DNA of 64,000 nt from a virus: the IMG/VR virus record IMGVR_UViG_3300037466_003456, positions 1 through 64,000 of that record; one strand, written 5' to 3'. Shown here in pieces: positions 7,302 through 34,614 of this stretch (position 1 is the stretch's first letter; each line of letters begins with the position of its first letter). The notes beneath the pieces are model-generated. The model was not told where the DNA came from. It searched no databases and saw only the letters and a list, made by a program, of their open reading frames with translations. Position numbers and translations under genes: made by a program.

Positions 7302-7312
7302 CCGGTTCGAGT

Positions 7313-7344: not shown

Positions 7345-7360
7345 CTAGAGAAAACAGGGG

Positions 7361-7666: not shown

Positions 7667-7668
7667 TC

Positions 7669-8922: not shown

Positions 8923-8936
8923 TGAGGTGCACGTTT

Positions 8937-12353: not shown

Positions 12354-12369
12354 AAAGGTTTGATGTCGC

Positions 12370-13431: not shown

Positions 13432-13437
13432 GTGTGA

Positions 13438-13989
13438 ATGTTGGTTATCGATTTAAATCTATTTACACAGACCATTGCGGTGTTGAAAGAGAATAGTATT
13501 GACGATATCAAAGCTTCACTCGTATCCCTTGATATGCAGGAGCAAATAGCTCAGGATAAATACGATCAAGCGCTAAAGGAATTGAGAAGGCTGCTGATTC
13601 TGTTTAAAAAATACGAAAGCCAAATCAATACTCAGAAACAGATTGTCACGGACGAAAAAATACAACCATTGGTTCCGCTCATCAAACAACAGCAAGAAGC
13701 TGCGGTTTTTACCAGTGTTAGAACGGCAACTGTCACGGAAGTAATAAACGCAAAAAAAGAATTAGACAGCATGGATGCTTCTGTAGAGGAAATGAAATTA
13801 CGATTATTTTTCCAAGCAAGAGAAGCGAAACTCGCTTCCAATAACTTAGCAAAGATAGAATCTCAATGTTTCATCTTGGAAACTGCGATCGACATTGTGG
13901 AGCGATTTAATATAAACGGGTTTAGTATGCAAGAAATATCAGACTATGAAATTCCAAAATACTTTGAACTGTATCGAAAAGGCGGGTGA
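13438..13989 (+). CDS. Hypothetical coiled-coil protein
   Basis: 183 aa, heptad-rich, in the baseplate operon. Confidence 0.6.
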   Translation: MLVIDLNLFTQTIAVLKENSIDDIKASLVSLDMQEQIAQDKYDQALKELRRLLILFKKYESQINTQKQIVTDEKIQPLVPLIKQQQEAAVFTSVRTATVTEVINAKKELDSMDASVEEMKLRLFFQAREAKLASNNLAKIESQCFILETAIDIVERFNINGFSMQEISDYEIPKYFELYRKGG

Positions 13990-14870: not shown

Positions 14871-14885
14871 AAAGGAGGTAATGAT

Positions 14886-16916: not shown

Positions 16917-16931
16917 AAAGGAGGTGCACAG

Positions 16932-18518
16932 ATGTTAAGCAAGGAACAATCTGAGAACCTATTATATAGTCTTCCCAGTTTTTATCGCGATTTTCTTCCG
17001 GTGGATAATTCTCTCTTAAAACTTTATGACGTGTATGCCAAAACCATTGACTATGCGTGGAATGTTTACCGGGAAACAGAGGATGGTCAATTTATATCAA
17101 CGACAAGAACCGTCAGCACTATCCCCTATTTTAAGGTCGATATAGAAGATGCTTTTTATAGTGTTCAGACAGCTGAGATCCTTTCTGGGATGAACTTCGA
17201 AGATCAAGTGGCATACATGGATAAAAATAATCTCTATGCTTCTTTCAGTTTTTCTCAAAAGAATCAAACGGATGACCCTATCGTATACAGTATGAGGTTG
17301 ATGATTAGTTTCACTGATACGGTACCGCTAAAAATGTTTACCGATTATTTCATTCGTAACAATCGCTTGTATTTATTGCCGAGCTTTGTTCAATCCAACA
17401 AACAAGTCCTTCGTTATCTGCATGCGTTTGATATGAAAATAAACGACTATACATTGGAAAAGAATTTCGGCAGTCGGTTTCAATTAAAACCGGGTTCTCT
17501 CTTAACCCGCTTTGAATACCGCGATGTATTGGAAGCCTATATTCGAGCCTTCCAAGGAAATCTAACCATTCGAGCGTTAAAAGAGAGTATCCGACTGGCG
17601 ACCAAATGGGATACCTTTTCGATTGAAGATATGAAAAGCCCATCAATTTCAGAGGCTAAATTGCAGTTATATAAAGACTGGACAATATCACCGTTGAAAT
17701 TTTTGGTGACTTTGCCTGAAGAGTTGATTCCAGAAAAAGCAAAAACCAATATCGTGCGGACATTATTGAATGAGATCAAGGAATCCCAGACGGATTATAT
17801 GTTGTTTTATGATGTTCTTCGTTTGGATGAAATGCCGATTATGATGAAGAAAAAGCCGATTTATCATGTGAATCGAACGGACCCCATTAGGAATAAGGAA
17901 ACATCAAAAGTCAGTAAGTTGACCTTAAAAGTTCACGACAATCCATTCGACTTATTCGGTACGTATGATACGACCTTTTTTTATAACCAAACCTTGGATT
18001 ATGATGCGGAACCGAAGCCTGAGATTGTGGGTATCCAACAACATAGTGCGAACTGGGATGAAACACAAGGCGATGACCAAGTAGCAGTTAAATTCTATTC
18101 TTTAATGATTCCTAGGAACTTTCATGCCAACAAAGACTTATCGGCTGAAACGATTACGTTCTCCGTTAATTCAAACCAAGATACAACAACCTCCTTCGAA
18201 TTATATGGTGCATTAAGAATCGATGGAACGTATAGATTGATAGAATCTGTTGCGAATAATAAACAACAAGGAACAATTTCCTTCCTACATAATGCAATAG
18301 GAAGCGGAAACTTGTATTATAAAAGTAGGTCGAAAGACCTATCGAAAGTGTCACTTTTCACTTTGCCTATCTACATTGGCGATCAATCGATGATCCCTAT
18401 GTTTGATGAGGACGACATCATTCACGAGGATTACTTGTTGGAAGAGGCGTATGTTGTAGACACTAGTTTAGGAATGCAATCGTTAATCGCTTATTTACTT
18501 GATATAACAGCTTATTAA
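16932..18518 (+). CDS. Probable baseplate wedge protein
   Basis: 528 aa following baseplate J; LLYSLPSFY N-terminus; call is by synteny. Confidence 0.5.
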   Translation: MLSKEQSENLLYSLPSFYRDFLPVDNSLLKLYDVYAKTIDYAWNVYRETEDGQFISTTRTVSTIPYFKVDIEDAFYSVQTAEILSGMNFEDQVAYMDKNNLYASFSFSQKNQTDDPIVYSMRLMISFTDTVPLKMFTDYFIRNNRLYLLPSFVQSNKQVLRYLHAFDMKINDYTLEKNFGSRFQLKPGSLLTRFEYRDVLEAYIRAFQGNLTIRALKESIRLATKWDTFSIEDMKSPSISEAKLQLYKDWTISPLKFLVTLPEELIPEKAKTNIVRTLLNEIKESQTDYMLFYDVLRLDEMPIMMKKKPIYHVNRTDPIRNKETSKVSKLTLKVHDNPFDLFGTYDTTFFYNQTLDYDAEPKPEIVGIQQHSANWDETQGDDQVAVKFYSLMIPRNFHANKDLSAETITFSVNSNQDTTTSFELYGALRIDGTYRLIESVANNKQQGTISFLHNAIGSGNLYYKSRSKDLSKVSLFTLPIYIGDQSMIPMFDEDDIIHEDYLLEEAYVVDTSLGMQSLIAYLLDITAY

Positions 18519-18536
18519 ACGTAGGGAGGGACAAAC

Positions 18537-19091
18537 ATGGCTCAATTTCCATTGACGGACTTACTCACAGGGATCAGAAGACTGTTTGTAGGTGTACAAG
18601 GGAAGGCAACAGACGGTTCATATAAAGATATAAATGTCACCGATAATGGGGAAGTCAAAACCGTATTGAGTGCAAGTAACCAAGTAATTGGGCGGACCGT
18701 TTTGTCAGATGGAACCAATTCTGTTTCTTTGACTTCTAACGGAAGTGTAAAGACATTACCTGTAAATGGTTCTGGGACTGAAATATTCAGTACCACGAAT
18801 CCGGCGAAAGTCTTTGTAACGGGGGCCACGACCTTTAAAGGAGCAAAACAATCAGTCTCCACGGCCGGAACTAAAGTGCAACTTCCGAGCTATGCCTGTA
18901 CGAAGGTGACGATTGTGGCACTAAAAGACAACACTGGTTCCATCTTTATCGGTGGTTCTGATGTAACACAAAGTGTATTCGGAGCTGAACTGGAAGCGAA
19001 AGATGCCGTCACCATTGAAGTATCAAATACGAATTTAATCTACCTGACATCCAGTGTATCTGGTGAAGGAATTTCTTATTTCGCCGTTTAA
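18537..19091 (+). CDS. Hypothetical virion-associated protein
   Basis: 184 aa, beta-rich, strong RBS GGGAGGG. Confidence 0.55.
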   Translation: MAQFPLTDLLTGIRRLFVGVQGKATDGSYKDINVTDNGEVKTVLSASNQVIGRTVLSDGTNSVSLTSNGSVKTLPVNGSGTEIFSTTNPAKVFVTGATTFKGAKQSVSTAGTKVQLPSYACTKVTIVALKDNTGSIFIGGSDVTQSVFGAELEAKDAVTIEVSNTNLIYLTSSVSGEGISYFAV

Positions 19092-19113
19092 TCCAAGGAG
19101 AGGGGAAAAGCAC

Positions 19114-19665
19114 ATGCAAAAACAGGAATACATGGATGGTTTTTCTGGTATCGGGACGGTCACCGTTCGACCATTTAAGATTGAAAAAGATGGCACACGC
19201 ACTTATTTTTCTGTAACAAAAAACAATTTGATTGTTGAAGCAGGGAGAGCGGCTTTGCTTGATTTGCTGGTAGGAGCAAAAAAGAAAAAGCTCAAATACA
19301 TTCGCTGGGGAAAAGGGGGAGCAAAGGCATTTCCTGACGGTGATCCACTCAGTCCGATACCAGTTGATGACAAGGATACAGATGTTGTCACCAAATTACT
19401 AGACAAACCATTAAGTGCTTACACTCGTGTAACACCTACCCAAATTGATTATACGGAGACTCTGATTTGTGATGAAGTTGATTCTGATGTCAACGAAGCT
19501 GCTATGTTGTTTGAGGAAGAAACTACTTTGGAGAGATCCATTTTCGCTCGTATCACTTTCCCGACCGTCAGATTGCAAATCGTTCAAGGTACAGGAATTG
19601 AAATTAAATGGACCTTCAATTTTACAAAAGCGGATGAGGTTCCAGCTTCAGTCACCACTATTTAA
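19114..19665 (+). CDS. Probable baseplate/tail-fibre attachment protein
   Basis: NLIVEAGRAALLDLL...IRWGKG...SIFARITFP pattern; ATG 19114 follows GGAGAGGGG. Confidence 0.55.
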   Translation: MQKQEYMDGFSGIGTVTVRPFKIEKDGTRTYFSVTKNNLIVEAGRAALLDLLVGAKKKKLKYIRWGKGGAKAFPDGDPLSPIPVDDKDTDVVTKLLDKPLSAYTRVTPTQIDYTETLICDEVDSDVNEAAMLFEEETTLERSIFARITFPTVRLQIVQGTGIEIKWTFNFTKADEVPASVTTI

Positions 19666-19688
19666 TTGTAAGGAGAGGTGAAAAATAG

Positions 19689-21068
19689 ATGACACAATAT
19701 GTGGATATTGAGTTTAGGGAACGAGTAACGTCCGCCCCTTTAAATAAAAGATTTAAAGATATTACTGGCCCTGCTATTCTAAGTGGATTCCGGTTGGATT
19801 TAGGAAGTGTAGACTTCTCTATTAGTCTTAAAAAAGGTGACTATAGCAGCAGTGTCGCCATACATCCTAGTGGAGTCAGAATCGAGGAAGACCGAGACTT
19901 ACTGGATGTAGTGGACATTGAGCCCAATGATTTAAATGAAGGAAATCCAAGGGTGGATTCGATTTATCTCGTATATAGCTTCGGAACGGAAGGAATTCCG
20001 GCATCTTATGTGGTCGTACATGGAATAGGAGGCGAAGATACACCATCTCCTAATCCTAACCCAAATACTCACTTACTCTTAGGATATATCAATGTTCCTC
20101 CTAATGGAGTGGCACCTAAAGTTACTGACTTAACTTCTGTGAATATTGGGATCAATACCCTTGAGGTTGCAAATAGTGCAACATTCAGGGGAGGTGCTAC
20201 CTTTAAGGATAAAGTAGTATTTGAAAAGTCGGTCGTGTTTCTTGATGGAACAGATGGAGTGGAAGACCCGAATGGTTCGTTTTTTGAGCAATTGTCCTAT
20301 CCTATCGTTGCAACGGCAGGGCAGCAAACGTTCACCGTCCCTAAAGGATACGCACCAAAGACAAATAGTTTGAAAGTATACAAGGATTGGGTTATCCAAC
20401 CTCCGAGTGTGTATGATGAAAATTCATCGACAACTTTCCGTTTCTTAGATCCGTTAAAGGGCGGAGAGAAAATCTGGTTCGAATGGGCGCGTAACATCTC
20501 CTTATACAAACCAGAAGATCATAATCACGATACTTTGTATTACCGGAAGAACGAAGTGAATAATAGAAGCCTTCATTATTCCACAGATTTTTTTGCAGGA
20601 CCTATCGGCCGTGTGATCAATCATTATTTTGGCACATTGGATTATATCGTCTTGCCTCCTGTGACCACGGACAAAGCCGCCGATGTGGGAGAAGTAACCG
20701 TCCAAAAACAAGAGGATTCCATAGTTGTGTACAATACAGGAACGTATAGAGGGAAATTCGACATTTCCTACTATCTAAAAAATTCCTTTCAATACACACC
20801 GAATAATGAGGACATTGGGATGTTTGATATCACATCCACTGATTTGGATGCGAACAATAACAACTGGAAAGCCGTTAGTTATAAACGTTCGGACGGAACC
20901 CTCTATCTTAAAACAACCCTTGAAAATTACGACGCTAGAGGATACTATCGTCGGATAAAAATTGATTATTATAACACAACGGGGACAACGGTTATTGATA
21001 CGAAAAGATATGCCTTAGATTATAACGACAAAGGCATAATCTATCAAAAAACTCTTATTCCAGGATAA
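19689..21068 (+). CDS. Probable tail fibre/baseplate accessory protein
   Basis: 459 aa; PRVDSIYL...LLLGYINV and VATAGQQTFTVP motifs recalled from fibre-base proteins. Confidence 0.5.
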   Translation: MTQYVDIEFRERVTSAPLNKRFKDITGPAILSGFRLDLGSVDFSISLKKGDYSSSVAIHPSGVRIEEDRDLLDVVDIEPNDLNEGNPRVDSIYLVYSFGTEGIPASYVVVHGIGGEDTPSPNPNPNTHLLLGYINVPPNGVAPKVTDLTSVNIGINTLEVANSATFRGGATFKDKVVFEKSVVFLDGTDGVEDPNGSFFEQLSYPIVATAGQQTFTVPKGYAPKTNSLKVYKDWVIQPPSVYDENSSTTFRFLDPLKGGEKIWFEWARNISLYKPEDHNHDTLYYRKNEVNNRSLHYSTDFFAGPIGRVINHYFGTLDYIVLPPVTTDKAADVGEVTVQKQEDSIVVYNTGTYRGKFDISYYLKNSFQYTPNNEDIGMFDITSTDLDANNNNWKAVSYKRSDGTLYLKTTLENYDARGYYRRIKIDYYNTTGTTVIDTKRYALDYNDKGIIYQKTLIPG

Positions 21069-21071
21069 ATG

Positions 21072-21105
21072 AAATAGGACGGGATTCGCCATCCTGTCCT
21101 ATTTT
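21072..21105 (+). terminator. Intrinsic terminator
   Basis: AATAGGAC-GGGAT...ATCC-T-GTCCTATTTT after the 19689..21068 stop. Confidence 0.6.
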
Positions 21106-21132
21106 CAAATATAAACAAAGGAGTGAAATGAT

Positions 21133-21615
21133 ATGGCAGCACCATTAACTATAGAACAAATGATTATGAATCATAACATTGGCGTGAATATTTCCGATGC
21201 AGATTCGTTAGAGGGTCATAAAGCATCAGAATTCTCCTTGGTGGGACATAAACATAGCGCTTCGGATATTAATTCGGGAACGATGGGAACAGCCTATTTA
21301 CCTTCGGCTTCTACCACGGCAAAAGGGATTGTACAGTTGTCCTCCAATACGGATAGTACGGATGCGACAACCGCAGCAACCCCTTATGCAGTAAATCAAG
21401 TCAAAGCATTAGCGCAGGGAAAAGCGGATGCCGTTCACAAACATGCCGCCGCCGATATTAATGCGGGAACCTTTCCAGGGCGGATGGTGGCTCTTAGTGA
21501 GGATACAGCTGGGGTCCCATTCATCCGCAATATCATTGTTTCCACCATTCCACCTACCTCCTCTGTTGGAAAAGATGGCGATCTGTACTTTATCTATAAA
21601 GACGTTATAATCTAA
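21133..21615 (+). CDS. Short tail-fibre-repeat protein
   Basis: ASTTAKGIVQLSS...AATPYAV fibre repeat and two H-x-H motifs (HKHSASDI, HKHAAADI). Confidence 0.7.
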   Translation: MAAPLTIEQMIMNHNIGVNISDADSLEGHKASEFSLVGHKHSASDINSGTMGTAYLPSASTTAKGIVQLSSNTDSTDATTAATPYAVNQVKALAQGKADAVHKHAAADINAGTFPGRMVALSEDTAGVPFIRNIIVSTIPPTSSVGKDGDLYFIYKDVII

Positions 21616-21635
21616 GGCTCGGAGGTGAGAAAACC

Positions 21636-23156
21636 GTGACTGGTTATATAAAGGTAAATGGCGTTCAAAAAGAAATCATTGGTGCTTATTTTAAAAAAAA
21701 TGGCGTTTGGAAACAAGGAATGGTGATGTCTAATAAGGTCAATGGGGTGTGGAAGGATGTATGGACAAGCGCCTATGATACACCAACAGGTTTAACCTAT
21801 CCGACTACAGCTCAACGTGGCAGTTCGTTTACATGGACAGCTACTGCGGTTTCGGGTTCGGCTTATGAACTCCAAGCGAAATTAGGAAGCGGCACTTGGG
21901 GTGCTTCTCAATTTTTCACAAACAATAGCAATTCTTATACGGTCACAACGGATGTGACGATTAATTCATTACAGCTAAGAGTGAGAACCGTTGATCCGAC
22001 TGATCATTCCAAACCGAGCGATTGGGTGACAGGTGCAGTAACAAGTTTAACGCCACAAAAACTTGCTACACCTACAGGTTTCACCGTTCCTACCAGCATT
22101 ACGAGAGGTCAAAAGATTCATCTTTCGTGGAATGGTCTAGCTGGAGTATCGTATGCTGTTGAGGTTTACTATAAAAACAGTGCGGGTACGGCGACTCTTG
22201 CGACACAACTTGGAGTCATGACACTTGCAGCAAACGGAACCACCGGCATTGATTATACAGTCGTTACCGATACATCAAAAGTAAAAATCTATTTTAAATT
22301 GAAGGGTTCGAAAACGGGATATTCCGATAGCGACTATGTAACATCATCTGAAGTTACATTGACTGCGCAAAAACTTGGAGCCGTTACTACAATGAATGTT
22401 CCAACTCCTGTAAAAGGCGCAACCATCACCATCACTTGGGGATCAGTTACGAGTGCTGAATCGTATCAACTGGAAGTTATTTATGATAATCAAACATCGT
22501 TTACGCGAATTTATACAGGCGGCACTCGTTCATTTAATTACACCCTGCCTAAAGACAAAGGTTATGTTCAATTCAGAGTGAGAGCAACCGCTACTAACTA
22601 TGCGGTCGGAGATTGGCATTATGCCTGGAATAATGGCGAGATTGGTGTTAAAATCCAAGACCCACCACTTAAAAACAAGACATGGACAGCGACGTGGACA
22701 GGGAACTGGAGACCAAACTTCGGTGGCCAATGGAACAACGAGAATAATTATGTGTACCAAGGTAAGTGGACAGATTCGGGTGGTACATGGGGGAACTACA
22801 AAGGGATGGCGATATTCAATTATCAGGACATCCAAAACACTTTGGAGGGTAAAGATATTGAAAAGGTTCAACTTTATTTTTACCGGGTGAATGCAGGTGG
22901 TTACGTGGCAGGTCAAGCGATAACCCTCTATACTCACAACTACTCCTCTCATCCTGATGGGGAACCTTCCTATTGGTTTGTTCAGGGACCGTTCAGTTCT
23001 TTTGCGCGGGGAGAAGGGAAATGGATTACAGTTGATAATTCGGTAGCAGAGAGACTTCGAGATGGAACAGCCAAAGGGATCGGTCTTTACCGTTCCGATG
23101 GGGCAGGGTACTTGTTCATGTCGACGAATGTCCAGCTATACGTTGAATATAGGTAA
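21636..23156 (+). CDS. Tail fibre tip / receptor-binding protein with Fn3-like repeats
   Basis: Three Fn3-like repeats (PTGLTYP, PTGFTVP, VTTMNVP) followed by a Trp/Gly-rich C-terminal domain. Confidence 0.65.
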   Translation: MTGYIKVNGVQKEIIGAYFKKNGVWKQGMVMSNKVNGVWKDVWTSAYDTPTGLTYPTTAQRGSSFTWTATAVSGSAYELQAKLGSGTWGASQFFTNNSNSYTVTTDVTINSLQLRVRTVDPTDHSKPSDWVTGAVTSLTPQKLATPTGFTVPTSITRGQKIHLSWNGLAGVSYAVEVYYKNSAGTATLATQLGVMTLAANGTTGIDYTVVTDTSKVKIYFKLKGSKTGYSDSDYVTSSEVTLTAQKLGAVTTMNVPTPVKGATITITWGSVTSAESYQLEVIYDNQTSFTRIYTGGTRSFNYTLPKDKGYVQFRVRATATNYAVGDWHYAWNNGEIGVKIQDPPLKNKTWTATWTGNWRPNFGGQWNNENNYVYQGKWTDSGGTWGNYKGMAIFNYQDIQNTLEGKDIEKVQLYFYRVNAGGYVAGQAITLYTHNYSSHPDGEPSYWFVQGPFSSFARGEGKWITVDNSVAERLRDGTAKGIGLYRSDGAGYLFMSTNVQLYVEYR

Positions 23157-23208: not shown

Positions 23209-23931
23209 ATGTTTAAGATTTCATTGAGCGCAGGCCACGGTTTAGGTACGCCCGGAAAACGCTCACCTGATGGTATGCATGAGTGGGAATTTAATGGTGC
23301 CGTTGTTACGAAAATGGTTCAATTGTTTTCCCAATACAAGGATGTAGCTGTGAAACGATTGGACAATCCAACTGGTGCGACAGACATTCCATTGAAGGAT
23401 CGTGCTGCCGCCTCTGATGCCTTCGGAGCAAACTTCCATCTGGATGTTCACGCCAATGCCTCCGGTTCCACCTGGAACGATGCAAATGGCATTGAAACCT
23501 TCTGTTATAAAATGCAGGGTGTAGGCTATGAAGTGGCTAAGAAACTTCAAAAAGCTTTAATCGACGCGACAGGACTTAAGGATCGTGGCGTGAAAGATGG
23601 AGAAGATCTATACATGATCAATCATCCGAAAGCGCCAGCTGCCTTAGTGGAATGCGGATTCATGACCAATCAAAAGGAAGCGGCCCTTTTAAAATCAGAC
23701 GATTATCGTACGAAAGTAGCAAACGCATTGGTAAGTGCATTTGCCTCTCACTTTGGATTGGTGAAGGTACAGCCTGCTCCAACTCCTGTCACTCCAGCAA
23801 AACCGACTCCTTCTGTAACTGGAAAGTTGTACAAGGTGCAAGTTGGGGCATTTAGCAAGAAGGAAAATGCAGATGCCTTAATTAAAGACTTAGCTGTAAA
23901 AGGCTTTAAGGGTGCAGTCATTTATGAATAA
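23209..23931 (+). CDS. Endolysin: N-acetylmuramoyl-L-alanine amidase (Amidase_3) with C-terminal SPOR domain
   Basis: SAGHG, EWEFN, DVHANA and LVECGFMTN zinc-amidase motifs; YKVQVGAFSKKENA SPOR motif. Confidence 0.92.
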   Translation: MFKISLSAGHGLGTPGKRSPDGMHEWEFNGAVVTKMVQLFSQYKDVAVKRLDNPTGATDIPLKDRAAASDAFGANFHLDVHANASGSTWNDANGIETFCYKMQGVGYEVAKKLQKALIDATGLKDRGVKDGEDLYMINHPKAPAALVECGFMTNQKEAALLKSDDYRTKVANALVSAFASHFGLVKVQPAPTPVTPAKPTPSVTGKLYKVQVGAFSKKENADALIKDLAVKGFKGAVIYE

Positions 23932-24112
23932 TCAAAACCGTTGGAAATCCTATATATTATGGGCTGCCGTTGCCGCGTTAGTTGGCGATGCTCTCATTGA
24001 TTTGGGGTTATTAGGGGATTTAAATAAGTTTAATAGTTACGTAGATAAGGTGTTTTATATCTTGATGTTGTTAGGGATTGTCAATAACCCAACAAATAAA
24101 ACAGGATTATGA
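23924..24112 (+). CDS. Holin
   Basis: 62 aa, two hydrophobic segments, GIVNNPT motif; overlaps the endolysin stop. Confidence 0.8.
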   Translation: MNNQNRWKSYILWAAVAALVGDALIDLGLLGDLNKFNSYVDKVFYILMLLGIVNNPTNKTGL

Positions 24113-24215: not shown

Positions 24216-24234
24216 TATAAAGGAGGGAGACGTA

Positions 24235-25128
24235 ATGCCTCAAAAGATACAAGTAAAACGTGGAGCAAAGGCAAAACTGCAAAGTTATACATTGAGTGAT
24301 GGAGAGCTTGGTTGGGCAACTGATACGAAAGAACTGTTTATCGGAACTGGCCTCACAAATATTCCAATCAATCCATTAGTTTACAATACTGAAGCTGAGG
24401 TGCAAAGCGCCTTTCCAAGTGGAACGGATATGCCAGTATGGGTCAAATCAACAAAAAGATGGTATTTCTGGGATGACGGAACAACACCATCAGATATTAC
24501 ACCACCGACTGTTGTAGTTAACGTTCTGGGTGGAACGTATACATCAGTTCAGAATGTAAATCTAAGCACGGAGGCTGGGGCAATCATTTATTATACCTTA
24601 GATGGTTCGACACCGACCCAGACAAGTTCTGTTTATACAGCTGCTTTAGTCATCAGTTCTTCTAAAGTATTAAAGTATTTCGCGAAGGACTCGGCTGGCA
24701 ATGTTTCCGATGTTCAAACACAAACATATACCATCAATATGGATACGACGGCTCCGACAGTTACTGTCTATCCAACGCCGGGCGCTTACACAAGCAGTCA
24801 AAGTGTAACATTTACTACTAACGAGACTGCGACCATCTATTACACCAAAGACGGTAGTACGCCAACAACAGGTAGTTCGGTATACACAAGCGCTATCGTT
24901 CTTAATGCGACGGGTACGATCAAATATTTTGCAAAAGACGTGGCAGGCAATTCGAGTGGGATTCAAACAGCGACATATACCATTAACATTCCAGATGCTA
25001 CTCCGCCTAGCTCAGTCCAAGGATTAAAAGTGGCAGCGGCTACCCAAAACAGCATCACTGTAAGCTGGAACGCTAATACAGAACCGGACCTTGCTGGGTA
25101 CGAAGTCTCTATATCCGAGGTCGTTTAA
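24235..25128 (+). CDS. Virion adaptor: fibre-type N-terminal domain, two chitobiase-C/Fn3-associated repeats and an N-terminal half Fn3
   Basis: KIQVKRG...DGELGWATDTKELFIG; two IYYTxDGSTP repeats; ends mid-Fn3 (SITVSWNANTEPDLAGYEVSISEVV). Confidence 0.7.
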   Translation: MPQKIQVKRGAKAKLQSYTLSDGELGWATDTKELFIGTGLTNIPINPLVYNTEAEVQSAFPSGTDMPVWVKSTKRWYFWDDGTTPSDITPPTVVVNVLGGTYTSVQNVNLSTEAGAIIYYTLDGSTPTQTSSVYTAALVISSSKVLKYFAKDSAGNVSDVQTQTYTINMDTTAPTVTVYPTPGAYTSSQSVTFTTNETATIYYTKDGSTPTTGSSVYTSAIVLNATGTIKYFAKDVAGNSSGIQTATYTINIPDATPPSSVQGLKVAAATQNSITVSWNANTEPDLAGYEVSISEVV

Positions 25129-25158
25129 TATCCTGAAAAGGAAAATGGAGGGACTATA

Positions 25159-27033
25159 ATGGCAACAACCACTAATACGAGTTATACCTTTACCGGGCTA
25201 TCGCCAGGAAAGTCTTATCAAATCACAGTTTCAGCAAAAGATAATGCTGGAAACTCATCCACTCCCGTTTCCATTATTGGAAATACGAGTGCGGAAACTC
25301 CACTAGATACGACTGCGCCAACTGTTGATATTTCTCCAGCTGCGGGAACTTATACATCTACGCAGAATGTCACCTTGACGGCGAACGAGCCAGCAACCAT
25401 TTTTTACACACTGGATGGTACTACTCCAACAGCAAGCAGTCCTGTATACAATTCGCCTATCAGCATTTCTGGATCCGCAACCCTTAAATATTTTGCAAAG
25501 GATACTTCTGGGAATTCAAGTTTGGTGCAAACGGCTGTATATACAATCAATATTCCTGATACTACTCCGCCATTGAATGTAGCAACAATTACTCCGACCA
25601 CGGTTACAGATACTAGCGTCACCTTGACTTGGACTGCGAGTGAATCAAATGACGTGGCGTCCTATGATGTATTCAATGGTGCTGCGAAACTAGGAAACAC
25701 TACATCACTCACTTATACTATAAACTCTTTGACAGCGGGAACGGACTATACCTTCTGGGTAAAGGCAGTAGATGGGGCCGGAAACAGTTCGAGTGGGACA
25801 AGCGTAAGTGTAAGAACTTCGGTACCGTTGGATACTACTCCGCCAGTACTTACGATTACACAGGGAGGAAATTTCTATAATACTAAGACCATTACAATGA
25901 GCGCGAACGAAGCAGCGACCATTTACTATACAACGGATAATAGTGATCCTGTAACATCAGGTACAAGAATGATCTATACGTCTGCTCTCACTCTTTCCAG
26001 TACAACGACCATCAAAGCATATGCGGTGGACGGAAGCAACAATGCTAGTGGGGTTCAGACTGTGACGTACACACAAGTAGCATATGTAACGAATGGACTT
26101 CAGGTTTACTATGACTTTGCCAGCCTCAACTCGACACCTACTACAGTGACGGATTCGAGTGGTAATGGGAATACGGGAACATTAAAAAATTACTCTGGTT
26201 CATATGGAAGCGGCGTGATAAACGGAGAATTAGTCGGGGATGGTACAGGTGATTACATTACAATTCCTTCGAAGTCAACATTGAAAACTTATCCGTTTAC
26301 AGTCGAATTCTATGCCAGTTTTAGACGAGATCAAGCGGATGCGGCTGGGTCATTCAAATTATTCTCCGATGCATCTGGCACAGGAACAGGTAATGGTGTA
26401 TCAGTGAATCTTAATACGATAAAACATGCAACAACACCTAATACAATCTATCTTAGCGGTCCTGTTTCACAGCCTAACTACGGTGTTTCTTTTAATGCAT
26501 TTGATAACGTGTATCATCATATCGTTGCGGTATTTGGTTCAAATTACCAAAAAATATATGTGGACAACGTTTTGTTAGGTACAGGTAACCAAACTTCTAC
26601 TGCTACTTTAGGTGACAGGGTACTCGCTTTATTCGCAGATAATGACACCGTTTCTGCCTCTGCTACAACATTACAGCACTCCGCTCGATTATTCCGATTC
26701 TATAATCGTGAACTAACACAAGCGGAAGTAACACAGAACTATAATAATTTACCTTCAAGCTTTACACCAGGAGATTACAAAGCTCCAATCGCTACGTTCT
26801 CTCCAGCTCCTGGTACATATACAGGGGCACAGACCATCACTATTACGTTAGATGATGCAGACGGAGCTGAGGTATATTACACCACAAACGGAACGATTCC
26901 GAATATAACAAATGCTTCACAAAAATACACGGCTCCATTTACTATTTCAGCAACTTGTCGTATCAGCTATATTCCGAAAGACGCAGCGGGTAACAAAACT
27001 GCGATGAAGTATGTTGATTACACAATTAATTAA
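25159..27033 (+). CDS. Adhesin-like protein: C-half Fn3, IYYT repeats, intact Fn3 and LamG-like domain
   Basis: Starts MATTTNTSYTFTGLSPGKSY; LQVYYDF...FYNRELTQAEVTQNY is LamG-like; RBS GGAGGG. Confidence 0.75.
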   Translation: MATTTNTSYTFTGLSPGKSYQITVSAKDNAGNSSTPVSIIGNTSAETPLDTTAPTVDISPAAGTYTSTQNVTLTANEPATIFYTLDGTTPTASSPVYNSPISISGSATLKYFAKDTSGNSSLVQTAVYTINIPDTTPPLNVATITPTTVTDTSVTLTWTASESNDVASYDVFNGAAKLGNTTSLTYTINSLTAGTDYTFWVKAVDGAGNSSSGTSVSVRTSVPLDTTPPVLTITQGGNFYNTKTITMSANEAATIYYTTDNSDPVTSGTRMIYTSALTLSSTTTIKAYAVDGSNNASGVQTVTYTQVAYVTNGLQVYYDFASLNSTPTTVTDSSGNGNTGTLKNYSGSYGSGVINGELVGDGTGDYITIPSKSTLKTYPFTVEFYASFRRDQADAAGSFKLFSDASGTGTGNGVSVNLNTIKHATTPNTIYLSGPVSQPNYGVSFNAFDNVYHHIVAVFGSNYQKIYVDNVLLGTGNQTSTATLGDRVLALFADNDTVSASATTLQHSARLFRFYNRELTQAEVTQNYNNLPSSFTPGDYKAPIATFSPAPGTYTGAQTITITLDDADGAEVYYTTNGTIPNITNASQKYTAPFTISATCRISYIPKDAAGNKTAMKYVDYTIN

Positions 27034-27081
27034 AAGTGGGGGGGATTTGCCCCCCTCTGTTAAAAAAGGAGGTAGGATTCA

Positions 27082-30000
27082 TTGGCCACAACAAGTAGTA
27101 CGAACTATACCTTTACAGATCTGACGCCTTTGACCGATTACGAAATTGATGTAAAAGCAAAAGATACATCGGGAAACTTATCGTCTATTGCTTCGATAAC
27201 GTACAAGACCCCTGACGTAGATAGTACGCCCCCTGAATTGACCGTCCCAGATAGTGGGACCTTCAACGGAACAAAAACGATAGCTTTTACCACAAACGAG
27301 CCATCGACGATTTATTACACACAAGATGGTTCCATACCAACTCGTGCTAGTTCGGTTTATACTGACCCGATTGTTTTAACAGATTCAAAAGCTGTTAAAG
27401 CCTTTGCAGTGGACTGGCAAGGAAATGAGAGTGATGTAAAGGTTGGAACCTATACGAGGAACTTTGAACCGGATGAAAAGTATTTAGATCTCGATGGAGT
27501 GACTAGTGGCATTGTGACAGCTAGTTCTATTACTACTACGGCAATAGAAATGGATGTAATGTTTTATGATCGCGCTCCGACTGATAGCGGGACGATTGTA
27601 GAGCAAAACTATCAATGGGTTAGACGGCAATCCCCAAATGATAATATCTCAAACGGGTATTATTCAGTATTCGTAGACGGAAACCCTACTACAAACGCAA
27701 CACCCTTTCTGCCCGCTAATAAGAAGGTAACAGTCCGTTTGGTTAATACCAATCCAATGACCGCCAAGGTATACATTGGGGTATCATGGAACAACGGTTC
27801 CCGATTAAAAGCAAGGCTATATGGGCTTCGTTTTTTTAATGGCGGCGCATTGATTGGAAAATACGATTTTACTAAAGGGAATGCCAATGACTTATCAGGA
27901 AGCAATACCGTATTAAGCCTATATGGTACACCTACTTATAGATTCCCTGATTCACCAAAATTGACTGCTCCAACAGAGGTACAGGATATTCATGTATCAA
28001 GTACGATGACCTCCAATACCATTGCCTGGTCCGAGCCAGTCGATGCTGATTACAGTCATGTGAGATTGCTGCGTAATGGCGTGGAGCTGTTCGATGATTT
28101 GACAGGAAATCTATTCGTGGATAAAGGGCTAAAGCCGAATACTTCTTATACTTACCGGCTTATTTCAACGGACAATTACGGAAATGAAAGTTTGGGAACA
28201 AAGCTGGTATTATCGACGTTACCAGACACTTCGATCGTTCCAGAAGTATCGAGTGTTGCCCAAACCCATACCCATGATTCGGTGAAGCTGACATGGACAA
28301 ATCCTTTTGACCCATATACTTCCGTGAAAATTTATCGAAATGGTACTGCTATTGCAAGTGATTTAATGGGAACGGAATATACGGATAACGGATTGAGTTT
28401 AGGAACGACTTATAACTATAAGATCGTTGTTGTTGGAGTGACCGGAAAAGAAAGTGCAGGAACATCGATTAGTGCGACTACCGACGCTACACCAACTGTA
28501 ATGGCATTATATATGTACGGTAACAGTTATCGGAACTGGATTGAGACTCCTTCTGTTACGTATAACCGACTCGTCTTGGATTTTAAACTTCCTGACCAAA
28601 CAATTATTCCGCCAAATGGTACGTTTATTCTTTTAAATACGGGTCAAGAAACATTTGGAAATAAAGTGTTCTATTCACCTACGGGAACAGAAACGGTCAA
28701 TCACACTGTAGCTCCCGGAGGATTAATTGTTAATGGAGTGCCCGCATCGACGGGAACCAACTTTATTACTCCGAATACACGGACTGTTTTCGATATGACA
28801 TTAGGCTCAACGGTTACCGAAGTTATTCGTGTGTTTGGTACACATAGTGCTTCACCATCCCCAGAAGGATACGTGTATAGTCTAAAAGCGTATAACGGAG
28901 ATAATTTAATTCTTCATTACGACATGGGAAAAGGTACTCTGAATGACCAGTCCGGCAATAACAAAAACGGTAAAATTGTAGGTGTCGGGGGTAAATGGTT
29001 AAAATCAAGCGACCCATATGTAGATACCACTCCACCACCAGACGTGGCGAATTTAGAAGCAGCAAGTGTTACAGGAACAGGTTGCGTTCTTAAATGGACT
29101 GAGATATTCAAGGCGACTGATTTTGCTCGTTACGATATCTATAAAAATGATGTACTACTTGGGAACGTAACAGGCCTTTCATACACTGTATCGGGATTGA
29201 CTGCTGATAATTTGTATAAATTTACAGTTAAAGCGGTGGATACAAAAGGAAACTTCAGTGTCGGGGAATCTGTACAGGTTCTTACATCAACAGCGATGTC
29301 TACGGTCATTCCGCCTGTAGCAGATTCCATCTTGTTCGATTTGAATTTAATCAAGAACAAAGGCTCGTGGAATCGTACAGTATATGATCGGGTGAGCAAC
29401 GTAAAAGTAGACCTGCCTAATGCTTTTGGTACAGACAAATTTAATAACATAGACTTTGGTTTCATTAATGATAAAGGTTACACCATTTATGAACAAGGTA
29501 GGGCAACCATCAACACTGGCGGGACGGCACTTGCATCAGGAATCAATATGTCGAGTGGCATCACACTTGAGTTCTTAATGGCGGCTCAACCTGTAAGAGC
29601 GATGCTAATTACTAGTACCCAGTTTGAATTAAAGAGTGATCCGAACGGTTTTACCCTAAAGTATACGTATTTAGATTTTTCAGGAGTGCAAAAGACTTAC
29701 AGTGCGGGTACTTCTAATACTGCTAAATTTACGAATCTGGATACTCTAGGCACACCAACCAACCCGTATACAGATACGTTAAGGCCAAAAGGAGAGCTAA
29801 ACTTAGTCACTGTCCGACTTAATACAAATGGTACGGTAGACGTAATTGGAAACACGTACAAATATCGTGTAGCCGCTCCAGCTGATTTCTCTTCGTATGT
29901 GAATTGTTTTAATCAAGCTTCAATGACATTTGGCGGTTTTGGGTTTATAGATAATACCCAAATTATGACTATGGGTAAAATCGTCATTCACAATCGGCTC

Positions 30001-31935
30001 TTGACCGACGGGGAAGTATTACAGAACTATGCCTTCTACAATGAGTTGTATCCATTTGAGGACATTACGATTACCCCATCTTCGGTAAATTTGGATGTTG
30101 GGTCACAAAGACAACTCGTTGTTTATACTGTACCTTACTATTATGACAACAAAGCTACAAAAACTTTTGATAGTGGTAATGCTGGATTTGTAACAGTTAG
30201 TAGCACAGGTCTTTTAGCCGGGGTACTTCCGGGAGAAACCGACATAGGTGTCCATGTTGCCTATGGCGGGAAAGAAGTGGTTCGTAACGTTCCGGTAGAA
30301 ATTGTGAGTCCTGTATCGGACCCGGACGCTATCGGTTCCACTTCACGTACAATCACAGGTATTTCCATCAACAAAAAGACAGACAGCATAGAAGTAGGAG
30401 AAGCTTATGTAGTCATGGCAACTACGCTTCCTTACGACATTTTTTACGATAACGTGGTGATTTGGGAAAGTTCCAATCCAGACGTATGTGAAGTGCATTA
30501 CGGGGTGCTAGAAGGAAAGTCGGTAGGGACAGCAACTATTACAGCCTATGATAGTACCAAAACTTTTTCTGAGAGTTTTACAATTGAAGTAAAGCAACCA
30601 GTTCCACTGGTGATCACTGAAGCAGAGACTTATTATGTCAATGGGACTGATTATGGTCTCCAATTAAACAATACGGATTCCTTGAACACGACAAATGGTA
30701 TCCAAGCAGCATGGGATTTTGCTCATGCAAATGGTTACAAAAAAATTGTGTATCCGAACGGTACTTACTTAGTCAATCCAACTGTTAGGTCACTTGACCT
30801 CCCTTCGGATATGGTGATTGATTTTAGTGATTCTGTTATGAATATCGAACCTAGTGCAAAAACGGCTACTGGTTATGTCATGATTAATATGAAGAACATC
30901 AAAAATACCATGGTAACCCGGTTGCATTTGTATGGGGAAGCAGATTCAACAACGCTAAAAGCGTCTTGGGAAGGCTGCTTGAATACCGAGATAAAAAACA
31001 CTATAAATTGCGGCTATTACAAATGTACGATTAGTAAATCTCCGGGATTCAATATAGCTTTTGGTAATAGTCCAGTTGAACCGGGAACAGAAACGGTAGT
31101 TTTAAGTAAAAATAATCTTTTTCCAGGCAATATAAATAACCATGGACTAGAGGATGACAGTATCACTAGCTGGCATTTTAGGACTAAATTTTTCCTAGAC
31201 ATCTCGTCATTAGGTGCTTACTACATGTTAGGGTATAACCAAGGATATTCAGGATATCCATTCTTGCGTTCTCGACTATACAGCATATACTTTTATGACG
31301 CAAATAAGCAATTTATGACCGCTCATCTATATAACTTACAGTTCTACGAATACGTGAAACCAGTCGGTGCAAAGTACGCGAAGATTGTAATTTATCAAGA
31401 AGCAGCTCCTACTGGGGCAGACCCAGACTTCCAATCGGTAGCGTTACTCCGTACGATTGGTACAAATCGTAAATCCTATATTCGAGAGTGCCGCATTGAA
31501 AACAATTTTAGCACAGGTATTGCGGCATGTGGTGGATATGACAACCGGATTGAAGGAAACTTCTTCTCGGGAAACAATGGTCGTATGCCAGGATGTGACA
31601 TTGACTATGAGGATGGTTGGGAAAATGCTTGTGGAGATATTGTCCGAAACAATACATTTGGTTCCAATTTAGGTATTACTACTGCTTCAAGTTCGAGTTT
31701 AGCGGTATTCGATAATCTATTTAACAACTCACGGATCACGGTTTGGGATAGAACCTGTACTTGGCGAATATTCCGTAACACTTTCAATGGTAGAAGTAAT
31801 ATGCAACCATCGTTTGGCACTCAGGGAGATTCCTATCTTGCGGAGAACGTCTTTATTAACCAAGTGTTTAGTACTTCGAAAAACCATGCCACTGCAAATT
31901 ATAGTGTCCATGTAATTAATAACACAGTAATGTAA
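27082..31935 (+). CDS. Giant adhesin/depolymerase-like protein: C-half Fn3, lectin-like domains, Fn3, Ig-like repeats and beta-helix
   Basis: 1617 aa, TTG start after AGGAGGT; Fn3 and Big_2-like repeats; C-terminal repetitive beta-helix (GIAACGG, IEGNFFSGN, IDYEDG). Confidence 0.75.
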   Translation: MATTSSTNYTFTDLTPLTDYEIDVKAKDTSGNLSSIASITYKTPDVDSTPPELTVPDSGTFNGTKTIAFTTNEPSTIYYTQDGSIPTRASSVYTDPIVLTDSKAVKAFAVDWQGNESDVKVGTYTRNFEPDEKYLDLDGVTSGIVTASSITTTAIEMDVMFYDRAPTDSGTIVEQNYQWVRRQSPNDNISNGYYSVFVDGNPTTNATPFLPANKKVTVRLVNTNPMTAKVYIGVSWNNGSRLKARLYGLRFFNGGALIGKYDFTKGNANDLSGSNTVLSLYGTPTYRFPDSPKLTAPTEVQDIHVSSTMTSNTIAWSEPVDADYSHVRLLRNGVELFDDLTGNLFVDKGLKPNTSYTYRLISTDNYGNESLGTKLVLSTLPDTSIVPEVSSVAQTHTHDSVKLTWTNPFDPYTSVKIYRNGTAIASDLMGTEYTDNGLSLGTTYNYKIVVVGVTGKESAGTSISATTDATPTVMALYMYGNSYRNWIETPSVTYNRLVLDFKLPDQTIIPPNGTFILLNTGQETFGNKVFYSPTGTETVNHTVAPGGLIVNGVPASTGTNFITPNTRTVFDMTLGSTVTEVIRVFGTHSASPSPEGYVYSLKAYNGDNLILHYDMGKGTLNDQSGNNKNGKIVGVGGKWLKSSDPYVDTTPPPDVANLEAASVTGTGCVLKWTEIFKATDFARYDIYKNDVLLGNVTGLSYTVSGLTADNLYKFTVKAVDTKGNFSVGESVQVLTSTAMSTVIPPVADSILFDLNLIKNKGSWNRTVYDRVSNVKVDLPNAFGTDKFNNIDFGFINDKGYTIYEQGRATINTGGTALASGINMSSGITLEFLMAAQPVRAMLITSTQFELKSDPNGFTLKYTYLDFSGVQKTYSAGTSNTAKFTNLDTLGTPTNPYTDTLRPKGELNLVTVRLNTNGTVDVIGNTYKYRVAAPADFSSYVNCFNQASMTFGGFGFIDNTQIMTMGKIVIHNRLLTDGEVLQNYAFYNELYPFEDITITPSSVNLDVGSQRQLVVYTVPYYYDNKATKTFDSGNAGFVTVSSTGLLAGVLPGETDIGVHVAYGGKEVVRNVPVEIVSPVSDPDAIGSTSRTITGISINKKTDSIEVGEAYVVMATTLPYDIFYDNVVIWESSNPDVCEVHYGVLEGKSVGTATITAYDSTKTFSESFTIEVKQPVPLVITEAETYYVNGTDYGLQLNNTDSLNTTNGIQAAWDFAHANGYKKIVYPNGTYLVNPTVRSLDLPSDMVIDFSDSVMNIEPSAKTATGYVMINMKNIKNTMVTRLHLYGEADSTTLKASWEGCLNTEIKNTINCGYYKCTISKSPGFNIAFGNSPVEPGTETVVLSKNNLFPGNINNHGLEDDSITSWHFRTKFFLDISSLGAYYMLGYNQGYSGYPFLRSRLYSIYFYDANKQFMTAHLYNLQFYEYVKPVGAKYAKIVIYQEAAPTGADPDFQSVALLRTIGTNRKSYIRECRIENNFSTGIAACGGYDNRIEGNFFSGNNGRMPGCDIDYEDGWENACGDIVRNNTFGSNLGITTASSSSLAVFDNLFNNSRITVWDRTCTWRIFRNTFNGRSNMQPSFGTQGDSYLAENVFINQVFSTSKNHATANYSVHVINNTVM

Positions 31936-31980: not shown

Positions 31981-34614
31981 GTGTCATATATGGGAACATG
32001 GAGAGAATTACCTGGTGGTTCTTATAGCAATGGAGTAACAGCTTTAGCGGGATTATCAGATGTTGATGTCAGCACCCAAGTACCAACCGAAGGAGATCTG
32101 TTAAAGTACATTAATGGTAAGTGGAAACCGGGCGCAGCTGCTGCCAGTGGTAGCGGAGGAACGATTATATCTTCTTCAGGTTCAACATATATTGTCGAGT
32201 TATCAAAATGGGGAATTGTAGCGGGAATCCCTTCTAAGCCTTATAACAATGCAGCTTATACACAAGCCAACAACAACGTAGTAGGATTCAACAACGCGAT
32301 TCAATACGCGGTAAATAATGGCTATACGGATATTGTTCTCCCAAGAGGTCAATATGCCATTTGTTATCCGTCCGTGATTAGCATGGCGAGTTACCTGACG
32401 TTCGATTTCAACGGTTCTACGTTGAAAGTAATCTACGATTCCGATAACCGTTCTCCTTATGATACAGCAGGAGCATCGGCTGGTCTATCTCCATGGAAAT
32501 TCTATGGAACCAGTATTGCCATGGATAACCTTGTTCATGCACATATTAAAAACCTTACACTCATTGGCTGCCGAGCAGACAGAAGTTTCGCTGACAAGGG
32601 AACAGATGGGATTTCCGGTGAACTGTCAATGGAACAAACTTATGGTATCTCATTCGGGAATGGTACACGTCACTGTTCGGTAAAACATTGTGATATCAGT
32701 TATTACATGGGTGATAATATCACATTTAGTTCCTTGCCAAACGGAACTCGTTGGGCTGAATTTAGCATGGGACTTACTGTAAATGACATCGATTTTACTA
32801 CCGGTCAGCTTATTGCTGCTACTGACAAACTGACCACTATGTTATTCACCCTTCCAGCTGGAACGAAAACATGGGCCATACAAGGGGCGGGATATTCACG
32901 GGCAACAAGTGCATATAACAGACACGAGTTTGATGTGTTTTACTACGATGCAAGTGGAAACTATTTAGGAGTTCTTCCTAAAAGACATTTCTATTCTCCT
33001 ATCGACGTTCCATACAATGCGGCCAAATTTAGAGTTGTGTTCTTTAATGAAACCAACACGACTAAAAATATGGGTATGATCTTCGTATTTGGGGATTTCA
33101 ACTACAACAACCTTGTTGAATACAACGTTTTGCATGATTCCCATCGTGGCGGTTTAACGCTTGGCGGAAACCACAATATTGTTCAACGAAATGTCATTAA
33201 AAACAATGGTAAGTATATTGGTAGAATGTTAGACGGAAAACCAGCGTTCAATGATCCTACTCGATATGGTATCAACCAAGAGGATAGTTATGGTGAAGGT
33301 TCGATTATTAGGGAGAATGTCATCTACGGAAGTTTCCATGGTGTCTTGATGGGTGCTTATTCCTCAATCATTGAAAATAACCATATTTATGACTGTGACT
33401 ACTTAGCTATCAATGTTTATACCTTGGATTATCTGCTTATCCGTGGCAACAAGATTCAAAACTGCTTATATAATCTAGGAATTGGCGGGAATGGATTTTC
33501 TGATGGATTTGTGGAAGTTGTTCAAAATAGCTTTTATGGGGGGATGCTTGATATCGGTTGGACAAGTAGCCCAGTTCACTACTTCCATTTTGAGTCCAAT
33601 AATTTTTACAATCCACATGGCTTACAGGATGTTGGCTCTAATGCCACCTTTAAAGATAATCGTATCCGTTTGTACCTAGATGCACCGGGCCAACATGTCC
33701 CGTCTACTGCGGAATACTACGACTACTCCACTTATGAGCCAGTAGTATTTAAGATTCCGAAGATGGATAATTGCGTCATCGAAGGACGGGTAAACAGCGT
33801 ATTTACAGCTAAATCGGATGCGACATTCATTACTGACAGGTTCCTTAACTGTAAGTTATCGAACTTGAACGCAACTTTCACGACCCTTACAGACACAATA
33901 AAGGATAGTGAAGTAGCTTTTCAAGATTGCGAGTTTAACAGTGTTTTCTTTATCAATCATGTAACAAGCAAATCAAGACATGCCAAAGCAACTCGATCTA
34001 CTTTCAATGACACGATAATCAAAATATCTAATGCCGGAGTATCAACGTCTGTAGTAAAGGTAAGTATGGATAAGTGTAAAGTGAATTCCACGCTTTTAGA
34101 CTCTTTCTTCTTAACGAGCTTAGACCAGACAACAGGAGCAATAGATGTAACAGATACAGAATTCACTTACTCCAATGGTGGTATGTTGAATATCGTGAGA
34201 AACTTACAGACGGCAACGAACACTCAGAATACAGCATCGTTTAAGAATTCTACGTTCACTTATACTGGGGCTATTCCAATCGCATTGGGCTATTACAATG
34301 ACAAAAACCCAATGAAGTCGTTTGTTTCTCATAACAACAAATTCGTAAACGTCACTCTTCCGACCCAAGATGCGGGTATCTATATTGGTTATGACCCAAG
34401 TAAACAATATAAGAAGACGGTCACTCTTGCTCAAAATGGTTCGGTGTATGAAGCGACCATCACGCACAATCTGAATACCACTGAACCATATGTATTTTGT
34501 GCGATTTCCAATCAGATTATTTATCCGACTGTAACGGTGATTGATGCTAATAACATTAAGGTGAGCCATACCGCTAGTGGTACCGCGAGTATAGCGGTTT
34601 CTAAGTTTCTATAA
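31981..34614 (+). CDS. Tailspike-like right-handed beta-helix protein
   Basis: LAGLSDVDV...GDLLKYINGKWKP fibre motif, FNNAIQYA...IVLPRGQY entry motif, Asn-ladder repeats, C-terminal ITHNL domain. Confidence 0.7.
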   Translation: MSYMGTWRELPGGSYSNGVTALAGLSDVDVSTQVPTEGDLLKYINGKWKPGAAAASGSGGTIISSSGSTYIVELSKWGIVAGIPSKPYNNAAYTQANNNVVGFNNAIQYAVNNGYTDIVLPRGQYAICYPSVISMASYLTFDFNGSTLKVIYDSDNRSPYDTAGASAGLSPWKFYGTSIAMDNLVHAHIKNLTLIGCRADRSFADKGTDGISGELSMEQTYGISFGNGTRHCSVKHCDISYYMGDNITFSSLPNGTRWAEFSMGLTVNDIDFTTGQLIAATDKLTTMLFTLPAGTKTWAIQGAGYSRATSAYNRHEFDVFYYDASGNYLGVLPKRHFYSPIDVPYNAAKFRVVFFNETNTTKNMGMIFVFGDFNYNNLVEYNVLHDSHRGGLTLGGNHNIVQRNVIKNNGKYIGRMLDGKPAFNDPTRYGINQEDSYGEGSIIRENVIYGSFHGVLMGAYSSIIENNHIYDCDYLAINVYTLDYLLIRGNKIQNCLYNLGIGGNGFSDGFVEVVQNSFYGGMLDIGWTSSPVHYFHFESNNFYNPHGLQDVGSNATFKDNRIRLYLDAPGQHVPSTAEYYDYSTYEPVVFKIPKMDNCVIEGRVNSVFTAKSDATFITDRFLNCKLSNLNATFTTLTDTIKDSEVAFQDCEFNSVFFINHVTSKSRHAKATRSTFNDTIIKISNAGVSTSVVKVSMDKCKVNSTLLDSFFLTSLDQTTGAIDVTDTEFTYSNGGMLNIVRNLQTATNTQNTASFKNSTFTYTGAIPIALGYYNDKNPMKSFVSHNNKFVNVTLPTQDAGIYIGYDPSKQYKKTVTLAQNGSVYEATITHNLNTTEPYVFCAISNQIIYPTVTVIDANNIKVSHTASGTASIAVSKFL

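Follow-up and report, generated by a model that had tools for sequence, protein, structure and literature searches.

One Fn3 domain is divided between an anchor gene and two downstream genes

We observe that a fibronectin type III (Fn3) domain is divided between fibre genes in the first 64 kb (positions 1 to 64,000, hereafter the window) of the 121,681-nucleotide (nt) linear IMG/VR virus record IMGVR_UViG_3300037466_003456, which represents an uncultured phage, has an estimated completeness of 80% and is contained in soil and rhizosphere metagenomes. Open reading frame (ORF) A (24235..25128) ends with the first half of the domain, and ORF B (25159..27033) and ORF C (27082..31935) each begin with the second half; these ORFs and all features described within and between them are on the plus strand. 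Based on the sequences and on structure models, fragment complementation in trans would probably join one anchor protein to two alternative distal modules, a reading to which we assign a probability of about 0.6. The same interpretation had been offered in a preliminary description made from the DNA alone, and it is supported, though not proven, by the analysis given here.

ORF A, as delimited by ORF calling and Pfam, encodes an anchor and shaft protein of 297 amino acids (aa) and is preceded by the Shine-Dalgarno sequence AAGGAGG (24220..24226, 8 nt 5' of its ATG). Its domains follow the order Mtd_N, two CHB_HEX_C_1/Fn3_assoc immunoglobulin-like (Ig-like) domains and Fn3 strands A to C, after which the stop codon is reached. 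The terminal 44 aa (24994..25125, ending ...GYEVSISEVV) comprise strands A, B and C and the start of C' and are hereafter called the socket. By the same two methods, ORF B (624 aa, distal module 1) contains an Fn3 C-half, CHB_HEX, an intact Fn3, CHB_HEX, Laminin_G_3 (E = 9e-12) and a further CHB_HEX, and ORF C (1617 aa, distal module 2) an Fn3 C-half, CHB_HEX, three intact Fn3, two Big_2 and several long stretches without family match. The C-halves, or plugs, are located at 25159..25293 in B (starting MATTTNTSYTF and covering the end of C', then E, F and G) and, by phmmer, at 27082..27216 in C (starting MATTSSTNYTF).

The position of the cut was measured with phmmer against the intact Fn3 inside B (25558..25833, self-match E = 4e-55, positions 1-88 of the hidden Markov model [HMM]), which served as the seed and ruler. 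A residues 254-291 align gap-free to seed positions 1-38, with six further residues reaching the stop, while B residues 2-45 and C residues 3-43 align gap-free to seed positions 46-89 and 47-87, respectively. Pfam agrees with this placement, with positions 1-38 of the 84 in the fn3 profile found at A aa 259-295, and positions 43-77 and 43-81 of the 89 in FN3_DSCAM found at B residues 5-39 and C residues 5-43. The cut lies in edge strand C', where nothing is lost or gained between the end of A (...YEVSISEVV) and the beginning of B. The preliminary description had matched the last 44 residues of A to the first half of the intact domain in B, and the beginnings of B and C to the missing half from the next position onward, and both matches are borne out by these alignments.

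When the last 44 residues of A are joined to the first 46 of either B or C, the composite matches an 88-position Fn3 HMM end to end without gaps. A+B scores 103.8 and A+C 102.3 bits, compared with 113-118 for intact domains, on an HMM that was trained partly on these halves. The composite carries the core residues of the Fn3 profile PF00041, namely, the Trp of strand B, the Tyr of strand C, the Leu of the E-F loop and the tyrosine corner of strand F. Judged by sequence, this layout is more than chance, and the halves complement each other exactly, meeting at one residue boundary.

AlphaFold2 was run on the 112-aa A-B junction, in which Gly took the place of the TAA, with phage Fn3 domains aligned in 11 rows as input, and the resulting model, in which the halves are covalently linked, shows a canonical Fn3 fold of seven strands with a predicted local distance difference test score (pLDDT) of 91.6 and a predicted template modelling score (pTM) of 0.82. 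The C-C' hairpin of this model is built by the A tail and the B N terminus, the spacer peptide forms the turn, and the N-half reaches a pLDDT of 97-98. The top Foldseek matches of the model are all Fn3 domains, with TM scores of up to 0.90. When the last CHB_HEX of A and the N-half are modelled alone, the CHB_HEX is predicted at a pLDDT of 81-93 and the N-half at 53-77, with most of its strands lost. Both modelling results are weak evidence; pLDDT is no measure of stability.

The cut is present in independent assemblies and shared by related elements

Logan contigs from four runs that are not marked as the source of the record were compared with positions 24800-27400. Contigs X9 and X10 span the A-B junction, and X9 and X11 span the B-C junction, with zero differences or indels; the identical protein A is furthermore recorded on 9 contigs. 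Since the junctions are unchanged in independent contigs and A recurs in this way, assembly error is excluded as an explanation.

We identified three related elements that are cut at the identical residue: the window, the contig carrying P0002 and P0121, and the contigs L102 and L006. P0002 (387 aa, ending ...GYEVSIAEVV) is an A-type protein with 73% identity to A, and P0006, which is full-length in L102 (366 aa, ending ...AYEVDITQVG), is an A-type protein with 61-68% identity to A. The B-type partner of P0002 is P0121 (625 aa, 70% identical to B and sharing its type of N terminus), which starts MMATTTNTSYTF, and that of P0006 in L102 is P0257 (445 aa), which starts MMTTTTNTTYTF and is shorter, as it is without the CHB_HEX-Fn3 unit of B. 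The L102 pair occupies positions 8853-9953 (A-type) and 10001-11338 (B-type).

That the split stems from an error of sequencing or assembly, or from a mutation that recently inactivated the gene in one genome, is so improbable in light of these data that it can practically be set aside. Such errors or variants do occur, as a one-T difference between L006 and L102 illustrates, but the junctions are identical in independent runs, A is found on nine contigs and the same cut is present in relatives with 61-73% identity. Moreover, real decay, as in the contig L103 described below, gives unrelated break points. The one-T difference itself is located in a T5 run within the plug-coding region (L006:11010-11030 versus L102:10025-10045) and frameshifts the B-type gene of L006; the two contigs are from sister samples, and the difference may reflect an error in sequencing or a naturally occurring on/off variant.

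In their degree of conservation the halves match the neighboring whole domains. The N-half shows 73% and 61% identity to the two relatives, where the adjacent CHB_HEX region shows 75% and 69%; the C-half of B is 80% identical to that of P0121, against 70% for the rest of B, and 64% identical to that of P0257 over 45 aa. In more distant relatives (L007, 870 aa; L010, 1106 aa; P0124; P0139; P0178) the fibre is one uninterrupted polypeptide, and its Fn3 at this position is intact. With distant relatives intact and three lineages sharing the cut, the split is derived and was later retained. The preliminary description had set as a test against itself the finding that all homologues are intact or that their break points vary; what we see instead is one break shared by three elements, with intact domains in the more distant relatives, so that this test failed to refute it.

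Divided Fn3 domains of this kind are rare. Across genome and viral collections, 1 of 139 Fn3 domains with the WNxNTEPDLA motif has a stop within 45 codons, and in a set of 354 retrieved proteins, which contain 593 full Fn3 domains, terminal halves are found only in this clade, P0343 excepted. P0343 starts with a C-half and was rejected as a member of the same system, since it belongs to a series of fragmented ORFs in L103 whose break points are unrelated, and it looks like part of a broken large gene. The series (L103:2242-12489, on a 356-kb bacterial contig) consists of five Fn3-rich ORFs of 1057, 416, 110, 737 and 755 aa; they look like the pieces of one or two giant genes and show what decay or long-read errors resemble.

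Further searches were also carried out with individual parts of the locus. A metagenome scan with the A alignment, which picked generic CHB_HEX patterns and returned 80 unrelated loci, gave no further split, and a protein search with B residues 1-48 gave only an internal Fn3/Y_Y_Y domain of P0234. In IMG/VR, TTTNTSYTF was found inside intact domains only, and the NTEPDLAGYEV pattern gave no match. P0257 came from a representative-library search in which the profile spanned all 625 columns of the long row and repeat-rich giants dominated the matches.

The conservation of the halves also bears on the possibility that the split is the scar of a gene fission without any docking role. Recombination or insertion would then have cut an ancestral fibre gene, the half-domains would be disordered or loose ends, and the proteins would assemble by other contacts or act independently. 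Consistent with such a scar are the ancestral state, which is a single ORF, the low AlphaFold2 confidence of the lone N-half, and the frequent recombination of fibre genes. Nevertheless, the same residue is cut in three lineages despite changes in spacer, stop codon and frame, the halves are conserved like whole domains, and unpaired half-sandwiches with intact hydrophobic cores would tend to aggregate. We therefore regard a fission scar as distinctly unlikely.

The genes appear to be translated separately

The TAA of A and the spacer that follows it (25126..25158) contain a GGAGGG at 25147-25152, 6 nt 5' of the B start; the 30 nt after the TAA are free of stops, and B starts with ATG. ORF C is preceded by the Shine-Dalgarno sequence AAGGAGG (27066..27072, 9 nt 5' of its TTG start), with in-frame stops at 27031, 27061 and 27073. 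The strong ribosome-binding sites (RBSs) that the preliminary description had noted for B and C can thus be read directly from the DNA, and the three ORFs do all lie in frame 1, with A and B separated by the TAA and 30 stop-free nt.

These properties of the window leave room for recoding, in which readthrough of the TAA (window) or a hop over the spacer (relatives) would yield a fused A-B protein, as A and B share one frame and the spacer between them is open. The relatives, however, show a different picture. The spacer measures 30 nt in the window, 26 nt between P0002 and P0121 and 47 nt in L102, the A-type gene stops with TAA in the window and with TAG in L102, and the A-type and B-type frames coincide in the window (offset 0), while in both relatives they are offset by 2 nt. 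In L102 the B-type frame is closed upstream and opens 9 nt before its ATG. That A and B share a frame in the window is thus a matter of chance, since the relatives differ in this respect, and because frames, spacers and stop codon have changed while the cut residue stayed in place, readthrough, frameshifting or hopping cannot be the mechanism that these elements share.

One further feature in favor of recoding is found in L102, where GGA is the final sense codon before the TAG and a second GGA lies within the RBS in frame with the downstream gene. The pair resembles the take-off/landing pair of T4 gene 60. Since nearly every AGGAGG RBS contains a GGA, the match in L102 is expected by chance, and in the window the last codon of A, GTT, has no matching landing codon in the spacer. 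A gene 60-like hop was accordingly rejected as not conserved, and a frameshift was discarded, the downstream frames being closed on their 5' side. Neither a conserved frame relation nor shared signals, as programmed recoding would entail, were found in the relatives, whereas every downstream gene has a strong RBS and a start codon of its own and three in-frame stops precede C. We consider recoding very improbable. Readthrough, bypassing and splicing, which the preliminary description had kept as alternatives, are contradicted by the frames and spacers of the relatives, by the separate RBSs and starts and by the stops before C. The stop codon of A, the RBS and start of each downstream gene and the different frames in the relatives all point to separate polypeptides.

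A proposed trans-complemented joint with two alternative partners

The domain content suggests how the three proteins would be arranged. At the N terminus of A, Mtd_N (24247..24354; Pfam PF18454 at aa 5-40) scores 42.9 bits against the Pfam cutoff of 26.3 (E = 4.6e-11), in keeping with the fibre-type virion-anchoring N terminus proposed for A in the preliminary description. This domain is presumed to be the trimerising and virion-attachment end, and we take trimerisation of A to be probable in view of BPP-1 Mtd. A has an anchor and is without a distal tip, and B and C have distal modules and are without a recognisable anchor; A is probably the virion-proximal piece. The earlier assignment of B as a LamG lectin agrees with its Laminin_G_3 match. 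For C, the "lectin plus beta-helix" that had been suggested was not confirmed, with C aa 125-300, 470-650 and 735-1000 and the C-terminal 450-510 residues showing no match in Pfam or PDB sequence searches.

According to the mechanism that we propose, A, B and C would be made as three separate polypeptides, with each A chain ending in an open half-sandwich of strands A-B-C and the first residues of C'. B or C would insert its N-terminal 45 residues, contributing the rest of C' and then E, F and G, so that both sheets (A-B-E and C'-C-F-G) would be completed from two chains and the rebuilt domain would form a tight noncovalent joint. With the rebuilt Fn3 as the joint, one anchor could carry either distal module, B with its LamG-type lectin domain or the 1617-residue multidomain C. 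B probably pairs with A while both are translated from adjacent cistrons, and C, expressed behind a hairpin and with its own RBS, would compete for the same socket. This perfect hairpin (G7-ATTTG-C6, 27038..27055), located between B and C, has no T-tract on the plus strand and a terminator-like score on the minus strand only; it may attenuate or stabilise the transcript and thereby set the B:C ratio. We infer that the halves bind each other, that C docks on A as well as B does, and that this confers two receptor specificities, or swappable modules, on the fibre.

That C takes part is suggested by its plug. The Fn3 half of C is 51% identical to that of B in amino acids, and the DNA is ~60 to 65% identical at the 5' ends, which indicates that C is not a recent copy of B. 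Across all plugs, Y9, F11, L14, P16, Y20, I22, V24, A26, D28, G31, N32 and S34 of the Fn3 core are invariant, including the tyrosine corner, the I-V-A-D run of strand F and the GN-S. A plug without a folding partner, i.e., a relic, would not be expected to keep exactly these core residues.

It is also conceivable, although we find it unlikely, that only A and B form the joint, being adjacent and probably cotranslated. The half on C would then have been inherited from a former split pair, binding elsewhere or acting as a linker, and C would reach the virion by other means. B follows A after 30 nt, whereas C is 2 kb away behind the hairpin, a B-type partner is the only one visible in the relatives, and G000 has one N-half and two C-halves, all of which fit a joint restricted to A and B. 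Against this stand the lack of another recognisable anchor domain in C, the retention of all Fn3 core residues in its half at 51% identity, and the score of the A+C join, which is like that of A+B (102.3 versus 103.8 bits). No relatives of C were found in IMG/VR.

Complementation of A by both partners, which we favor, nevertheless has to be weighed against several observations. The structure model of the A-B junction is favored to close into a domain by the covalent linkage of its halves. Only three split lineages are known, with 61 to 73% identity, so that the conservation spans limited evolution. One socket together with two plugs is seen in the window only, and the contig data of the relatives stop just downstream. 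A tightly trimeric fibre would make an arrangement of Ig-like arms and a split domain hard to picture. Finally, N-half-like modules in L102 precede non-Fn3 sequence within one protein, indicating that an N-half need not always await a partner in trans.

The protein in question is 578 aa long (L102:5157-6893; L006 ~6144-7880) and has two internal N-half-like Fn3 modules, each with ...SITVSWNANTEPD... The first module is followed by MTSTTSSG, which resembles the first residues of the plug, and then by a GLIxINGTST-type repeat, and the second runs into a C-terminal domain that is shared with the neighboring Mtd_N protein. This protein may be a re-fused joint or may carry further sockets.

Around the constant joint, both sides vary, with another N terminus on the A-type proteins of the relatives and a shorter B-type protein in P0257. 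In L102, Mtd_N is located on its own 295-aa protein (L102:7947-8834), and the A-type protein next to it (L102:8853-9953) has a different, coiled N terminus of ~110 residues; three or more proteins may be linked in series in the fibre of L102. On the JGI 3300071358 contig, which carries P0002 and P0121, the B-type gene is followed on its 3' side by a 382-aa GDSL lipase and a protein of >1186 aa.

More tentatively, the split Fn3 could be a standard connector, with a trimeric, three-armed anchor bearing identical sockets that would take any protein starting with the 45-residue plug. Mixed B and C tips would then provide two receptors per virion, and new tips could be acquired by recombination at the RBS-plus-plug boundary. 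The connector would then amount to a portable natural protein-ligation tag for host-range modules, used like engineered split-domain tags. We rate this extension as possible but somewhat doubtful.

Comparison with known split and composite domains

Single-chain fibres from related phages and prophages (L007, L010, P0124, P0139 and P0178; Bacillus/Paenibacillus-type "CHB_HEX C-terminal domain-containing" proteins) resemble A and B combined in having an anchor, the YPNGT..WYYW motif, CHB_HEX repeats, Fn3, CHB_HEX and LamG, and differ in having the intact Fn3 on one polypeptide.

Completion of an Ig-like fold by strands of another subunit is also known from chaperone-usher pili, in which a neighboring subunit supplies the strand. 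These pili are likewise built from incomplete Ig-like subunits that are joined in this way, but each pilin lacks just one strand and depends on a chaperone and an usher, whereas here about half of the domain would be supplied. No chaperone or usher was found among the neighboring genes, and the locus does not share the features of a pilus-type system. With respect to Fn3 itself, Dutta et al. 2005, cited in PMC11666773, reportedly found, judging by the title, that separated engineered fragments reassociate with high affinity, the cut reportedly being near the C-C' region; theirs was an artificial construct, whereas the genes described here are natural.

Among phages, the closest parallel is Tuc2009, where the C-terminal beta-hairpin of BppU completes the sheet of the Ig-like domain 2 of BppA in a crystal structure and the composite resembles a titin domain (PMC4742702). 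Both cases concern a phage adhesion device in which strands of the anchor complete an Ig-like sandwich on an accessory carbohydrate-binding protein. In Tuc2009, however, the anchor adds 25 residues (one hairpin) to a nearly whole domain and there is one partner, whereas in the window the domain is cut at ~44/46, both sheets would be shared and there would be two partners. In animal host cell factor 1, HCF-1, a half Fn3n and an Fn3c element hold two proteolytic fragments together noncovalently (bioRxiv 10.1101/577890). This Fn3nc (SAS1) is likewise a natural Fn3 rebuilt from halves on two polypeptides, but these come from one gene and one proteolysed precursor, unlike the separate genes with their own RBSs, the bacterial virus and the alternative partners considered here. 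The resemblance to BppU/BppA and HCF-1 is in mechanism only, as no PHROG, Pfam or NCBIfam match points to homology.

Our literature searches turned up no account of phage fibre genes that divide an Fn3 between them, with Tuc2009 BppU-BppA and HCF-1 being the nearest cases. That one subunit of a phage adhesion device can complete the Ig-like sandwich of another is known, and what is distinct here is the half-and-half cut between genes, together with two plug-bearing partners for one socket. The attachment and exchange of receptor-binding modules govern phage host range, and the known devices are dedicated adaptor domains. If the proposed mechanism holds, an ordinary Fn3 divided between genes would be another route to branched or alternative fibres, with a cut that is readily spotted in sequence. 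A small natural tag pair of ~45 residues each for protein assembly could result.

Genomic setting of the fibre genes

A blastn search of the locus against GenBank phages gave no match, and tblastn of A gave three weak CHB_HEX matches only. Tail and baseplate genes are found at 4302-23156, with baseplate wedge and tail lysin matches. Judging by eye from the translations, we take 23209-23931 to be an amidase-type endolysin with a SPOR-like C terminus and 23912-24112 to be a small holin-like ORF. These lysis-type ORFs (23209-24112) sit between the baseplate genes and A to C, thereby setting the fibre cluster apart from the remaining tail module. Just 5' of the lysis genes, a 506-aa protein (21636-23156) shows Hoc-like Ig repeats (PHROG 10993), a C-terminal domain without assignment and no Pfam match, and it is a further candidate fibre or decoration protein. 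After the lysis genes, four fibre or spike genes follow on the plus strand, the first three being A, B and C and the fourth encoding a tail-spike-like beta-helix protein (31981-34614).

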